A DNA stretch of 64,000 bases from Candidatus Latescibacterota bacterium (GCA_965116875.1 OZ220733.1:96001-160000), one strand, 5' to 3'. Shown: positions 49,523 to 63,666, numbered from the stretch's first letter. Notes: generated by a model from the sequence alone, not told the origin. Numbers and translations: made by a program.

Positions 49523-51616
49523 ATGAACAGGACATCGATATTGAGTACTGTCATTCTCCTGGCGGCTGCCTTGTTCGTACAAGCCGCCCGTGCACAGGAT
49601 ACCAATCGCTGGAATCTCCCCGACGGGGCCCTGATGCGTTTGGGCAAAGGAGACGTGCGCGACGTGGTCTGGTCGCCGGACGGAACGCGCCTGGCGGCGG
49701 GAGGCAGCGTCGGCATCTGGCTCTACGATGCCGGGACAGGCGAGGAAATCTCGCTGATCACGGGACATTCGCAGACGATCAACGGAATTGCGTTTTCGCC
49801 CGGCGGTCTGACGCTGGCAAGCGGCAGCCGGGACCATACGGTACGGTTGTGGGACGTGGCCACAGGACAGGGAAAAAGCATCCTCACGGGACATACCGGC
49901 GACGTCGAGGCGGTGGCATTCTCACCGGACGGGACGACGTTGGCAAGCGCCGGTGGTGACTCAACGGTGCGGATGTGGGACCTGTCCACCGGGAAGGAAC
50001 AACATACGCTCATGGGACATGTCGGGGAAGTTGGGTCCGTCGTGTTTTCACCCGATGGTCTGTCGCTGGCAAGCGCCGGAAACGACTCCACGGTGCGGGT
50101 GTGGGACGTGGCCACGGGGCAGGAACAACACACGCTTGCCGGACGTGTCGGAGAGGTTTGGTCGTTCATCGGAATGGTCCGGCCGGTCGCGTTTTCACCC
50201 GACGGTCTGACGCTGGCAAGCGCCGGAAGCGACTCCAGGGTTCGGTTGTGGGACCTGGAATCGGGACGGGTAAAAAGCGCACTCGCGGGGCACGGGTCGA
50301 TCGACTATTCGGTGATGTTTTCTCCTGACGGATCGACCCTGGTAAGCACTGGCGGCTATCGGGACCCAACGGTGCGGTTGTGGGACCTGGACACCGGACT
50401 GGAAAAACACGCCCTGACGGGACACGCGATGTTGGTCAGGTCGGTGACGTTTTCGCCGGATGGGAGGACGCTGTCCACCGCCGATTGGGACAATACGGTG
50501 CGGGTATGGGACGTGGAATCGGGGCAGAATCGAAGTACTCTCACGCTTACCCTCACAGGGCATACCCGACAAGTACATTCGGCGGCGTTTTCGTCGGATG
50601 GGCGTCGGCTGGCAAGCGGAAGTTGGGACTGGACGATGCGGCTGTGGGACGTGGCCGCAGGAAAGGAGCAAGGCATCCTTGAAGGCCATGACAGTGTGGT
50701 CAGGTCGGTGGCGTTTTCGCCGGATGGGAGGACGCTGGCAAGCGGCAGTTACGACTGGACGGTCCGGTTGTGGGACGTGGCCACCGGTCACGAGACAAAC
50801 ACGCTTAAAGGACACACCAGTCGAGTCGGGTCGGTGACATTCTCGCCCGATGGTCTGACGCTGGCAAGCGCCGGCAGTGACAATACGGTGCGGTTGTGGG
50901 ACGTGGCCACCGGTCAGGAAAAGCACGTCCTGACGGGACACGCGGCAAGGGTCTATTCGGTGGCGTTTTCGCCGGATGGCAGAACGCTGGCAAGCAGCAG
51001 TCTTGATGAGACGATACGCATGTGGGACGTGACCAGCGGGCGTCAGAAAAACACGCTCGCAGGTCATTCCCGCTGGATCTATTCGCTGGCGTTTTCACCT
51101 GATGGGACGACGCTCGCAGGGCCCGATGGCGATGGTACGGTGCGGCTGTGGGACGTAGCTACGGGACAGCTCATTCGCACCCACACTACATACAAAGAGG
51201 GTTTCTTGTCTGTGGCGTTTTCACCCGACGGGGCAACGCTCGCGACCGGCAGTCTGTTCAGGACCGTATGGTTGTGGGACATGGCCACCGGACGGGAACT
51301 ACGCACCTTCACGGGACATACCGGTCTGATCAGGTCGGTGGTGCTTTCACCGGATGGAACGACGCTTGTAAGCGGCAGTTACGACGGTACGATTCTGGTG
51401 TGGGATGTCGATTCACGAGCCGCGTTGCAACCCCGTGCCGCCGACTTTGACGGTGACGGGGCCGTTGGTTTTTCAGATTTCTTGCAATTCGTAGCGAATT
51501 TCGGACTGAGCTGGGGAGATGAGGGATATGACGCGCGCTTCGATCTGGACGGCGACGGTACCGTCTCGTACAGCGACTGGACGATCTTCAGACGCAACTA
51601 CGGCCTTGGTTCCTGA
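49523..51616 (+). CDS. Secreted WD40-repeat protein 1 (14 repeats) with a C-terminal dockerin/EF-hand-like domain
   Basis: Signal peptide ARA-QD, WNLPDGALMRLGKG cap, GH...FSPDG..LAS...WD repeats, DFDGDG / DLDGDG pair. Confidence 0.95.
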   Translation: MNRTSILSTVILLAAALFVQAARAQDTNRWNLPDGALMRLGKGDVRDVVWSPDGTRLAAGGSVGIWLYDAGTGEEISLITGHSQTINGIAFSPGGLTLASGSRDHTVRLWDVATGQGKSILTGHTGDVEAVAFSPDGTTLASAGGDSTVRMWDLSTGKEQHTLMGHVGEVGSVVFSPDGLSLASAGNDSTVRVWDVATGQEQHTLAGRVGEVWSFIGMVRPVAFSPDGLTLASAGSDSRVRLWDLESGRVKSALAGHGSIDYSVMFSPDGSTLVSTGGYRDPTVRLWDLDTGLEKHALTGHAMLVRSVTFSPDGRTLSTADWDNTVRVWDVESGQNRSTLTLTLTGHTRQVHSAAFSSDGRRLASGSWDWTMRLWDVAAGKEQGILEGHDSVVRSVAFSPDGRTLASGSYDWTVRLWDVATGHETNTLKGHTSRVGSVTFSPDGLTLASAGSDNTVRLWDVATGQEKHVLTGHAARVYSVAFSPDGRTLASSSLDETIRMWDVTSGRQKNTLAGHSRWIYSLAFSPDGTTLAGPDGDGTVRLWDVATGQLIRTHTTYKEGFLSVAFSPDGATLATGSLFRTVWLWDMATGRELRTFTGHTGLIRSVVLSPDGTTLVSGSYDGTILVWDVDSRAALQPRAADFDGDGAVGFSDFLQFVANFGLSWGDEGYDARFDLDGDGTVSYSDWTIFRRNYGLGS

Positions 51617-52003
51617 AGCAAATACACGGTGTCAGAAACAGGTTGCGTCAGGTCCGCATTGGGGCCGGGAGCCGCTTCCATCGGGCGGGTTCAGGCATGG
51701 GAGTTGAATCCTTGATGGACGCGTGCATTGACTTCGCATCATTCTCCCATTCTTCCCGCGTTCAGAAAGGAGGTGGTATCGGAATCCACGTCGCGAAACG
51801 TTGGACCGCGGTATATGTACGTAAGAAGCGATGCCTCGGGGCAAGTGCTGAACTGAAACGTCTCGCGGCTTGAACGTTCGAGCAACGTCCAACGGCTCTC
51901 TCGGCAAGCAGATCACTCGCTCCGGGTTATTACAGGAGTCACATCAGTTACTGTCTCTTCTTGCGGTCTCATCCGAGTTTATCAGAATCAGGGAGGGTAA
52001 ACC
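51617..52003. repeat. Homologous intergenic spacer element of the WD40 array (representative copy)
   Basis: The GAAAGGAGGTGATATTGGAATCCACGTC-like core and its flanks recur near 48750, 51765, 54238, 56640, 56749 and 61292. Confidence 0.8.
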
Positions 52004-61205: not shown

Positions 61206-61573
61206 TGCGAACACGCCGTGTTAGAGTGGATTCTCGTCGTGAGATCGGATATGCAACCGGCCTGGAGCGGTCCAGGTTTAGTCCGCGTTTTGAAAGGAGG
61301 TGATATTGGAATCCACGTCAAGAAAAGTCAGACCGCGGAATGTTTACGCGAGTAGCTATGGCTCGGGGAAAGTGCTGAAATAGCGCGTCGGTGTTGGAAG
61401 CGGTCGAACGACACCGCCGAACAACGCACACGGGGTCCCTCGATTGCGCCATCACTGGCTCCAGGGCAAATGTAGATCGCGTCAGTCTCAGGCTCTTTAT
61501 GGGTCTCGATCCGCTTCAAATCACGGTTTGTCCGTCTTAATCAGGGTAGATCATAGTAAGGGAGGACATTCAG

Positions 61574-63666
61574 ATGAAAAAGCCCGCGATTTTGAGCTTC
61601 ATTCTTCTTTCTGCGGCTGTCTTGCCGGCGCAGAACAGCAACGCGCAGGACTACACTCGTTGGAATCTGCCCGAAGGCGCCCGCATGCGATTGGGCAAAG
61701 GAAACGTGCTCGACGTGGCCTGGTCGCCGGACCGCACGCGCCTGGCCACGGGGGGCACCGCCGGCATCTGGCTCTACGATGCCCACACCGGCGCGGAAAT
61801 TTCCCTGATCACCGGACATTCGTTCCGGGTCAATGCGGTTGCGTTTTCACCCGATGGTCTGACGCTGGCAAGTGGCAGCAGGGACGATACGGTGCGGTTG
61901 TGGGACGTGGAAACGGGGCAGGAAAGGAGCATTCTCACGGGCCATAGATACGACGTCGAGGCGGTGGCATTCTCGCCGGATGGGACGACCCTGGCCAGCG
62001 GCAGTCGCGACGGCACGGTGCGGGTGTGGGACGTGGCCACAGGACAGGAAAAACACACCCTTTTAAACGAAAAGTACCGGGAATTGGGGAACAGGCCCTT
62101 TGTCTATTCAGTGGCATTTTCGCCCGACGGTTTGACGCTGGCAAGCGCCGGAAATGACTCGACGGTACGGGTGTGGGACATCGAAACGGGACAGGAAGAA
62201 CATACGCTGACGGGACATACCCATCGGGTCTGGTCGGTGACGTTTTCGCCGGACGGAATGACGCTGGCCAGTGGGAGTCGGGACAACACGGTGCGGGTGT
62301 GGGACGTGGAAACGGGACAGGAAAAGTTCACCATGGACGGGCATACCCATTGGGTGTATTCGGTGACGTTTTCGCCCGATGGAGCAACGCTGGCCAGCGC
62401 CAGTCGGGACAGCACCGTGCGGGTGTGGGACGTGGAAACCGGACAGGAGAAACACACACTCACAGGGCATGAGTCCAGAGTCCGGTCGGTTGCGTATTCG
62501 CAGGACGGGATGACCCTGGCGAGTCGCGGTGTCGACAATACGGTGCGACAGTGGGACGTGGAAACGGGGCTGGAGAAGGGCGCCCTCAGACTTACAGGGC
62601 ATACCTCCGCCGTCGGTTCGGTTGCATATTCGCCGGACGGAACGATACTGGCCAGCGGCGGTAGCGACCGCATGGTCCGGTTGTGGGACGCGGCCACAGG
62701 GCAGGAATTGAACACCCTCACAGGACATACGCGGTTTGTCAATTCCGTGGCGTTTTCACCGGATGGGTTGACTCTGGCAAGCGGCGGCAGCTATCGGGAC
62801 GATACGGTGCGGTTATGGGATGCGGCCACTGGGCACGAGAAACACACCCTCATAGGACATACGGGCAGCGTCGAGTCGGTGGCTTTCTCGCCGGATGGCA
62901 AGACGCTTGCAAGCGCCGGCGGCTATCGGGACAGTACGGTGCGGGTGTGGGACGCGGCCACAGGGCAGGATATACGCACCCTCACAGCACATACCGGAAG
63001 GGTCGAGTCGGTGGTTTTTTCGCCGGACGGGTTGACGCTCGCAAGCGCCGGAAACGACTCTACGGTGCGGTTGTGGGATGTGGCCACAGGGAACGAGAAA
63101 CACGCCCTCACAGCAGCTACCCAATGGATCAATGAGGTGGCGTTTTCGCCGGATGGGACGACGCTGGCAAGCGCAGATATTGGCGGTTCGGTTCGGTTCG
63201 GTTGTGGGACGTGGCCACAGGGCAGGACATACGCACCTTCACTGGCGAAAATTTCCGTTCGTTGGCGTATTCGCCGGATGGGATGACGCTGGCAACCGGC
63301 AGTGCGCACAACCGGGTGTGGCTGTGGAACGTACCCTCAGGGCAGGAAATAAGCACCCTCACCGGCCATACCGATCCGATCAATTCGGTGGTGTATTCCC
63401 CGGATGGGAAAACGCTGGCAAGCGCCGGTTACGACGGTACGATCTTGCTGTGGGACGTCTCGTCACGTGACGCGCTGCAACCCCTTGCCGCCGACTTCGA
63501 CGGTGACGGAACCGTGGGCTTTACAGACTTTCTGCTATTCGCCGCGAAGTTCGGGCTGAGCTGGGGAGATGCGGGATATGACTCCCGCTTCGATCTGGAC
63601 AACGACGGGGAAATTCGGAACCAAGATTGGTGGATCTTCCTAAAGAGCTTCGGCCGGGGTGGATGA
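61574..63666 (+). pseudogene. WD40-repeat protein 6, frameshifted at a (CGGTT)4 tract (pseudogene, phase-variable gene or assembly error)
   Basis: ORFs 61574-63286 and 63202-63666 join into one 14-repeat + dockerin-like protein if one CGGTT unit at 63184-63203 is removed. Confidence 0.88.

Follow-up and report, generated by a model that had tools for sequence, protein, structure and literature searches.

A tandem array of exported WD40 double-propeller proteins with dockerin-type tails and localised blade variability in a Candidatus Latescibacterota genome

We describe a tandem array of genes in the genome of a Candidatus (Ca.) Latescibacterota bacterium (GCA_965116875.1), the products of which combine a signal peptide, two WD40 propellers and a dockerin-type tail. 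The window, by which we mean the whole 64,000-nucleotide stretch of DNA that was analysed, corresponds to positions 96001-160000 of one 5.45-Mb contig (OZ220733.1) in a genome that is 97.7% complete, and positions given below are those of the window unless stated otherwise. Within the array region of the window lie six co-oriented plus-strand open reading frames (ORFs) of 570-726 codons each, bounded at 49436/49523-51616, 52004-54088, 54404-56494, 56891/56915-58948, 59040-61205 and 61574-63666, and 126-bp periods run across all of them (68-78% matches in Tandem Repeats Finder). A preliminary description, made from the window alone, had the array ending at 63666; yet a tblastn search and ORF listing reveal five further co-oriented copies beyond the end of the window, bringing the whole array to 11 genes (g1 to g11) over about 26 kb, six of them inside the window. 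The G+C content of the array (~0.59) is the same as that of the remaining window, and GC skew is positive over the array. The features inside the window are as follows:

49523..51616, plus strand: g1, with a signal peptide, 14 WD40 blades and a dockerin tail at about 51437-51613; a divergent member, subfamily A
51617..52003, plus strand: an example of the intergenic spacers, which are 91-420 bp long and end in AGGGAGG 7-8 nt 5' of the start codon
52004..54088, plus strand: g2, with a signal peptide at about 52004-52075 (ending AHA before QD), 14 blades and a dockerin tail at about 53909-54085; the protein that was modelled
54404..56494, plus strand: g3, with a signal peptide, 14 blades and a dockerin tail at about 56315-56491 (Dockerin_1 27.3 bits, above cut-off)
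56915..58948, plus strand: g4, with a signal peptide, 14 blades and a dockerin tail at about 58769-58945 (Dockerin_1 25.0 bits); subfamily B
59040..61205, plus strand: g5, with a signal peptide, 15 blades and a dockerin tail at about 61026-61202; subfamily B
61574..63666, plus strand: g6, of the same architecture but frameshifted (ORFs 61574-63286 and 63202-63666), with a tail scoring 20.7 bits for Dockerin_1
63185..63199, plus strand: a (GGTTC)x3 run, the site of the 5-bp insertion that breaks g6

The AGGGAGG ribosome-binding site is conserved in all 11 upstream regions when these are aligned, and because of this conservation we place the true start of g1 at 49523, where the ATG is preceded by the conserved AGGAAAGG/AGGGAGG site, and that of g4 at 56915, as set by alignment of the upstream regions. 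The spacers appear from these alignments to have been duplicated along with the genes. Of the six genes first described, g6 is frameshifted: in pairwise alignment with its closest paralogue g10, which lies outside the window (13 colinear blades, with 0.18 synonymous substitutions per synonymous site, dS, in the blade scaffold), g6 carries five extra bases, a 5-bp duplication, opposite a 5-base gap in g10. No alternative allele of this insertion occurs among contigs from a second study (described below), which are fragmentary, none being shown to bridge the frameshift. In addition, g11 has an in-frame TAG nonsense codon where g7 has TAC, and consequently 2 of the 11 copies are broken in this assembly, while the other nine retain uninterrupted frames (677-724 codons), a leader, a ribosome site and a tail.

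Long minus-strand ORFs also occur inside the repeats (50195-51067, 52204-53205 and 55180-56190), encoding repetitive products of 290-336 aa (…CPVATSHNRTV…), and we judge these antisense ORFs to be by-products of repeat composition.

All six window products match the Pfam WD40 family (PF00400; E 2e-134 to 8e-170) in 11-13 stretches per protein. For the divergent g1 the E-value is 9.5e-144, with 14 blade matches and a tail that reaches 23.6 bits for Dockerin_1. Outside the tail, no other Pfam family was found in the window proteins, and thus no NTPase, effector, NACHT, HET or signalling domain. As read from the translations, each product begins with a Sec-type leader of about 24 residues that ends AxA directly before QD, and blade 1 follows immediately. 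Counted with a blade profile derived from 88 clean units of 42 residues, the blades number 15 in g5 and g7 and 14 in the other nine genes, in agreement with the signal peptides and repeat numbers first proposed for the six co-oriented paralogues; the first blade is degenerate, scoring 5-18 bits on this profile. By contrast, the separate conserved cap that had been proposed at the N-terminus dissolves into that blade: its motif, LPEGAxxRLGKG, aligns with the strand D-GH segment of an ordinary blade and forms a strand at residues 36-40 of the structural model, where the supposed cap is the first strand of blade 1 rather than a domain of its own.

Within the C-terminal 60 residues there are two DxDxDG calcium loops with a helix after each, and across 21 aligned tails both loops show little or no variation, as expected from the paired calcium-loop module reported earlier. 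When the six window tails are scanned alone, Dockerin_1 scores lie between 17.0 and 27.3 bits and three of the six reach the gathering cut-off of 22.9; the lowest, that of g5, is under the cut-off but retains both loops. Judged from sequence, the tail has the structure of a type I dockerin (PF00404), with two tandem calcium loops each accompanied by a helix.

An AlphaFold2 model of g2, based on a 45-sequence family alignment (predicted local distance difference test score 88.8, predicted template modelling score 0.80), comprises 14 four-stranded blades (55 listed strands) and a helical tail with helices at residues 647-656 and 682-689. Its best fold match in Foldseek is 2ymu_A, annotated as a 'highly repetitive propeller structure' (49% identity, E 3.5e-66), and a phmmer search of PDB sequences agrees (2ymu at E 1.2e-163); the next fold matches are double-propeller small-subunit processome proteins, axonemal WD40 proteins, Aip1 and Gemin5. 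Together with the WD40 and Dockerin_1 matches, the 14-blade model bears out the reading of these products as exported double propellers with a dockerin. Whole-protein searches are dominated by generic WD40 proteins ordered by repeat number, the best about 50% identical, and include one poribacterial match named 'cohesin domain-containing protein'.

Variation among the blades is strongly localised, as had been claimed. In an alignment of 145 blades from the 11 genes over 42 columns, from which the 11 degenerate first blades were excluded (hidden Markov model score <25), per-site entropy exceeds 3.2 bits at columns 15, 16, 18, 34 and 36 only (5/42), in the D-A loop and the B-C turn; the next most variable are column 27 (2.87 bits) and column 8 (2.74 bits), and 27 of the 42 columns stay below 1.5 bits, with the SPDG core and the WD dipeptide below 0.5 bits. 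Median blade identity is 52-62%, and blades of one protein share 8-14% identity at the five columns versus 58-68% at the other 37. The variable sites had been described as rich in W, Y, R and H, which holds for R (18%) but not for Y (8%), W (7%) and H (4%), while G (13%), N (11%) and S (11%) are frequent. In the g2 model, columns 15-16 immediately precede strand A, to which column 18 belongs, and the B-C turn contains columns 34 and 36 (in one example blade, residues 217-218, 236 and 238 around strands 219-224, 230-235 and 239-244). In WD40 topology the D-A loop and the B-C turn form the top face of the propeller, and on the basis of these DSSP positions and the textbook topology the five variable columns would lie on that face; we refer to them as the top face below. 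Columns 16, 18 and 34 are again the most variable in 18 other WD40 ORFs of the same genome (183 blades), and for this reason the site of variation is a general WD40 property, with the conserved scaffold as the distinctive trait of the array.

Blade order is retained between the paralogues. In subfamily A, nucleotide identity is 76.6% between blades of different genes at the same position, 66.5% between those at different positions, and 66.7% between blades within a gene. The equality of the latter two values indicates that blade divergence predates the gene duplications and that blade amplification is old; no concerted evolution or repeat shuffling is seen inside genes. Six genes (g2, g3, g6, g8, g9 and g10) share the two scored blades at the start, with top-face signatures FRNRD and YDERG, and the two at the end, but differ from one another in blades 4-12. 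One gene, g10, is a mosaic in which two adjacent blades (the third and fourth scored) are nearest to g2 (96% and 93%) and the others nearest to g6 (87-99%), a pattern that implies a conversion or recombination tract. At least one recombination or conversion event is thus visible, and copy number changes between species as described below (2-11 copies), but the repeats are not shuffled. Two dedicated sources of diversity were also considered and rejected: a diversity-generating retroelement, given that the genome has no match to the reverse transcriptase family PF00078 (a search that was positive in 3 of 14 control genomes), and invertible promoters, given that the sole inverted pair in the array is 18 nt long, at chance level, with its arms 9.4 kb apart.

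Positive selection on the variable residues, which the preliminary description had proposed, finds little encouragement in ratios of non-synonymous to synonymous substitution rates (dN/dS). These were estimated pairwise from Nei-Gojobori counts with colinear pairing of blades; a first pairing by reciprocal-best blades was replaced, as it biased scaffold dS low for non-orthologous blades and produced spurious ratios of 2-4. In four independent paralogue pairs, dN/dS is 0.22-0.29 in the scaffold and 0.50-0.98 on the top face, while the g4-g5 pair gives a top-face value of 1.44 but is saturated; pooled by column, paralogue pairs reach a maximum of 0.97, at column 16. In a tree of 45 full-length homologues, genes of the array pair with genes of other genomes, which shows that the paralogues are old. 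Nine orthologue pairs (scaffold dS 0.24-0.56) have a top-face dN/dS of 0.28-0.87, below 1 in every pair, and a scaffold dN/dS of 0.20-0.34. By column, the top-face values in orthologues are 0.42-0.66, with 0.94 at column 2 and 0.90 at column 27, neither of which is on the top face, and many top-face signatures of individual blades are identical between the orthologues of different genomes. Top-face changes clump by blade: 60 blade pairs have none (34 expected) and 32 have three or more (~15 expected). However, blades with many top-face changes also have a scaffold dS of 0.46 as against 0.24, and this doubling fits replaced tracts rather than selection. The ratio of 1.63 in blades with at least three top-face changes was not used as evidence of selection, the blades having been chosen by the very changes that are measured.

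Counts over the whole tree were obtained from parsimony changes on the 45-sequence tree at 660 sites, 647 of them testable, with the caveat that parsimony undercounts at fast sites and that gene conversion disturbs the tree. Relative to the global dS, top-face dN/dS is 1.06 (bootstrap 0.98-1.15) and that of the scaffold 0.34; scaled to the sites' own dS, the top-face value is 0.77 (0.69-0.87). By blade, the top-face ratio is 1.08-1.43 on blades 4-12 and 0.47-0.86 on the terminal blades. Excess replacement at p<0.05 is found at 2 of 647 sites, neither of them on the top face, and at none of the 64 top-face sites. Brief positive selection after duplications is not apparent in these counts, although parsimony may miss it.

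Relatives of the array were collected by searching a 51-residue N-terminal alignment against one genome per species, which confirmed 204 among 281 candidate stretches; the distribution of loci rests on the best 80 of the 204, which represent 50 loci. By record label, 32 of these belong to Ca. Poribacteria, 14 to Ca. Latescibacterota, 3 to 'Gemmatimonadota' and 1 to an 'uncultured bacterium'. That the nearest records are Ca. Latescibacterota metagenome-assembled genomes (MAGs), that the family is shared with Ca. Poribacteria and that a related sequence comes from a sponge metagenome all agree with the sponge-associated origin first suggested. Several Latescibacterota chromosomes and a single 'Gemmatimonadota' bin contain tandem arrays of the full architecture. 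The three loci so labelled (L013, L022, L023) include one with flanks that are 87-93% DNA-identical to those of our genome and with 90%-identical orthologues of g4 and g5 (L023; the g4 identity being at the DNA level), and the label of these bins is probably outdated or wrong, rather than indicative of gene transfer.

Sequences 80-93% identical to the flanks of the array (genome positions 138-144.4 kb and 171.9-180 kb) are present at each of the eight loci examined, and close cap matches between these shared flanks were counted as copies in the syntenic array. Against 11 copies in our genome there are 6 in G001, 6 in G002, 11 in G003 (4 in short frames), 10-11 in G004 (3 in short frames) and 2 in G005, the last accompanied by a 392-aa dockerin protein; L016 and L017 have two partial copies and also the ~392-aa dockerin protein. 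Copy number at a single syntenic site thus shifts fast between related species, from 2 to 11. The ~392-aa dockerin protein, which has no Pfam match, closes the short WD40 array at L023:12317-, L017:11634- and L016:13421-, and its sole homologue in our genome (C1:526923-528101, L064; 73-75% DNA identity) lies 355 kb away.

While the locus is therefore not invariant between species, contigs from the second study, which contain 59% of the sampled words, show no differing letter over ~5.8 kb of the array (49400-51552, 52872-55150, 55791-56266, 61248-61768 and 62297-62765). The Logan contigs are broken up by the repeats, and apparent 'joints' in them with sides of 20-23 letters are repeat artefacts. 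None of the raw reads of a Hi-C run could be placed on the array.

The dockerin-type tail is widely used in this genome. Among the 16,009 ORFs that are 100 aa or longer, a profile of the array tails (one iteration) matches 107, in 57 of them at the C-terminus. With Pfam Dockerin_1, 47 of 124 candidates match at E<=0.01. Giant adhesin-like proteins containing cadherin, FN3 and LRR domains are among the products of the 107 ORFs, and WD40 blades are present in 27: the 11 pieces of the array and 16 more, some of which form further small arrays. Further sets of WD40-dockerin genes outside the window (C1:3156510-3163946, 3484887-3502844, 1063316-1066492 and 2126744-2131018) comprise a row of three 7-blade genes, a row of 14-16-blade genes, a 7-blade pair and a single 1424-aa protein with 26-27 blades. 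The potential partner domain, Cohesin, has seven matches in the genome, three of them above cut-off. Four of the seven share an open frame (of 1748, 283, 367 and 379 codons) with a sorting domain of the FlgD_ig/Por_Secre_tail type; in the largest, a 1711-aa protein, Cohesin spans residues 1482-1601 and the FlgD_ig/Por_Secre_tail domain 1627-1699. The other cohesin ORFs are giants with LRR, FN3, cadherin and leishmanolysin-type domains, and in the cohesin ORFs examined the module is single, with no multi-cohesin scaffoldin. The genome also encodes a homologue of the SprA_N translocon (97.5 bits) and yields 19 matches to sorting domains of the FlgD_ig type.

We find FlgD_ig in 19, Dockerin_1 in 15 and Cohesin in 5 of 22 tails of cap-WD40 homologues (poribacterial sequences and those of two distant loci in Latescibacterota), the sorting domain often standing directly after the dockerin, with one tail containing a trypsin-like peptidase and one a metalloprotease together with LamG. 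The same propeller is thus fused elsewhere to parts that are divided among separate proteins in this genome. Two poribacterial loci (L036:11786-12415 and L056:2304-4583) illustrate the enzyme fusions: what follows the propeller is either a trypsin-like peptidase or the combination of a reprolysin-like metalloprotease with Laminin_G_3 and a sorting domain, and the propeller could there serve as a targeting head for enzymes.

Overall, the observation made in the preliminary description is confirmed and its interpretation partly supported. The explanation that we prefer, with a probability of roughly 0.6, is that the array encodes exported, non-enzymatic double-propeller binding proteins that dock through their dockerins onto cohesin anchors at the cell surface. 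Each protein would be exported by Sec, with the two seven-bladed WD40 propellers as its binding part and the C-terminal, type-I-like dockerin as its attachment part, the latter most likely fitting, in the presence of calcium, into a cohesin module encoded by the same genome. The four cohesins that sit directly before a C-terminal sorting domain of the type IX secretion system (T9SS) type would then be the surface anchors, and the propellers, held outside the cell by them, would form one class within a large exoproteome of dockerin-tagged proteins. On the middle blades (4-12) the top-face residues are particular to each paralogue, and since orthologues in other genomes largely keep them, the paralogues probably bind different and fairly stable ligands, presented by the sponge matrix or by other cells. 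The array itself evolves by tandem duplication, loss, pseudogenisation and occasional gene conversion, rather than by repeat shuffling or a dedicated mutagenic device. Several points weigh against surface docking. Three of the six window tails fall just below the Dockerin_1 cut-off (17.0-22.3 versus 22.9 bits), EF-hand Pfam models score the tails about as well as Dockerin_1, and a sorting domain of the Por_Secre_tail/FlgD_ig type was not found in any of the six. Secretin has no match in the 97.7% complete genome (the control being positive in 6 of 14 genomes), and neither does PorP/SprF, although the absence of the latter from the control genomes too makes that search uninformative. Neighbouring genes, described below, offer no functional link. 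The passage of a Sec substrate with only a dockerin across the outer membrane is the weakest link in our explanation, and a periplasmic location is possible.

The preliminary description favoured a variable-receptor repertoire under diversifying selection, in the manner of HNWD genes, with repeat recombination and positive selection generating specificities towards a host, phages or self and non-self. Variation concentrated in five top-face columns, with 8-14% identity against 58-68% in the scaffold, would fit such a repertoire, as would a tree-wide top-face dN/dS of 1.06 (1.08-1.43 on blades 4-12, with the scaffold at 0.34), the clumping of changes by blade (32 pairs with three or more against ~15 expected), and 2-11 copies at one syntenic locus with pseudogenes and one conversion tract. 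Yet top-face dN/dS is below 1 in 9/9 orthologue pairs and 4/5 paralogue pairs, the fifth being saturated; it is 0.77 on the sites' own dS, with 0/64 top-face sites significant; the off-face columns 2 and 27 are equally fast; and the changed blades, with twice the scaffold dS, look like replaced tracts. Nor do we find intragenic shuffling, a reverse transcriptase in the genome, inverted repeats in the array above chance level, differences in the second-study contigs, or a NACHT, HET or other signalling domain in the window proteins. Beyond the near-neutral rates of the middle blades an arms race has no positive support here, none of the observations concerns the decoying of phages or the distinction of self from non-self, and we regard this model as unlikely. 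A further notion is that the array is mostly decaying surplus, a recently expanded family drifting neutrally with most copies functionless. Two of 11 copies are broken, frames are truncated in the larger arrays of relatives, top-face sites are near-neutral family-wide and some relatives manage with two copies; but scaffold dN/dS is 0.20-0.34 in all nine orthologue pairs, nine copies are intact (677-724 codons) with leader, ribosome site and tail, and orthologous pairs persist across genomes at dS 0.24-0.56, all of which makes wholesale decay very improbable.

Given that the array proteins have no sorting domain and the genome no secretin, the proteins would either stay in the periplasm or leave it together with a cohesin carrier. 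In the former case the calcium loops would be a structural, EF-hand-like cap or a periplasmic tag for interaction, and the propellers would act on the envelope or on imported substrates. A leader of the Sec type only, the want of secretin in a 97.7% complete single-contig genome and the comparable EF-hand scores all accord with this, whereas sorting domains of the T9SS type in 19 of 22 homologue tails (often after the dockerin), the pairing of cohesin and sorting domain in four ORFs, the presence of a SprA homologue, and dockerin-type ORFs that include adhesin-like giants typical of the cell exterior point outwards, and residence in the periplasm strikes us as rather improbable. The latter option, also doubtful, would make the dockerin a ticket for both export and display: T9SS-sorted cohesin proteins would capture folded cargo by its dockerin while still in the periplasm, pass through SprA with it and retain it on the surface, and the WD40 array would supply exchangeable binding heads of fast turnover, with middle blades re-tuned by short bursts of selection after duplication. 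Such carriage would explain why 107 dockerin ORFs are found against only 19 sorting-domain ORFs, why secretin is missing, and why propeller, dockerin and sorting domain form one chain in Poribacteria but are split between proteins in Latescibacterota.

Several known systems can be compared with the array. HNWD proteins (het-d, het-e, het-r) of Podospora are cytoplasmic, with a HET-NACHT-WD40 layout, highly similar repeats, polymorphism in repeat number, repeat exchange and significant positive selection, their variation being concentrated at few top-face positions of each 42-residue repeat. Our array resembles them as a WD40 multigene family that varies at few top-face positions per 42-residue repeat, but none of the cytoplasmic HET-NACHT layout, repeat exchange or significant positive selection was found in it; positional blade orthology is kept, blade number is 14-15 and no top-face site is significant, and the HNWD analogy that had been invoked is not supported at this locus. 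Cellulosomes share with it the Dockerin_1 tail, the cohesin modules and the many dockerin-tagged exported proteins in one genome. In contrast to cellulosomes, the cargo is a propeller without a catalytic domain, cohesins are single in each ORF examined, with four fused to T9SS-type sorting domains rather than to SLH anchors, and the organism is a presumed diderm sponge symbiont, unlike the Gram-positive fibre degraders that host cellulosomes. Cohesin and dockerin modules outside cellulosomes are known to exist.

The closest solved relative is the WRAP propeller Npun_R6612 of Nostoc punctiforme (PDB 2YMU, 49% identity), which also has 14 blades in two seven-bladed propellers, and the blades of which are unusually alike for WD40. 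WRAP propellers are C-terminal on cytoplasmic STAND NTPases and their blades are sometimes near-identical even at synonymous sites; Pereira and Lupas (2022, PMC9218822) describe this STAND context, the frequency with which members of the WRAP branch are disrupted, and an immune role proposed for the branch. The array propellers differ in being preceded by a signal peptide only and followed by a dockerin, in having blades that are 52-62% identical, and in a blade divergence older than the gene duplications, and Pfam finds no N-terminal NACHT or NB-ARC NTPase, as in STAND/WRAP immunity, in the six window proteins. In the poribacterial WD40 proteins the N-terminal blade is homologous (53-67% identity over 51 residues), and these proteins are exported and often tandem; unlike the array proteins, which end at the dockerin, they carry a sorting domain in the same polypeptide. 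Kamke et al. 2014 (PMC3909097) report WD40 domains as highly abundant in poribacterial single-cell genomes, with a Por-type sorting domain at the C-terminus of many such gene products, 'especially WD40 repeats'; their text mentions neither dockerin nor cohesin. According to Robbins et al. 2021 (PMC8163846), WD40 repeats are neither enriched in sponge MAGs nor among the laterally transferred repeat families, although repeat proteins are numerous in Poribacteria and Latescibacterota, and a 2023 study of sponge Latescibacterota (PMC12993501) gives only WD40 domain counts.

Our literature search found nothing joining WD40 to dockerin or cohesin in symbionts and no paper combining WD40, dockerin and sponge, and the architecture, with its context of dockerin, cohesin and sorting domain, is a new variation on known parts. 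WD40 'eukaryote-like' proteins are routinely tallied in sponge-symbiont genomes, and this locus supplies a concrete anatomy for them in the form of a Sec leader, a double propeller and a dockerin. Its context points to a non-cellulosomal plug-and-socket display system common to Latescibacterota and Poribacteria, and if docking and display are true, the propellers would be candidates for the molecules that touch the sponge. Moreover, the 2-11 copies between the same flanks form a natural series for the growth and decay of a bacterial binding-protein family.

Around the array, no mobile element or recombinase was found among the neighbouring genes. Downstream lie housekeeping genes (SpoU, GFO/IDH/MocA, creatininase and M81). 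Immediately upstream, at 39889-46504 on the plus strand, are two large genes with a Heparinase II/III-like C-terminal domain (811 and 716 aa) and an ORF of 643 aa without a Pfam match, followed by a gene of the DHDPS family at 46541-47443, and the group may constitute a glycosaminoglycan-degrading cluster.

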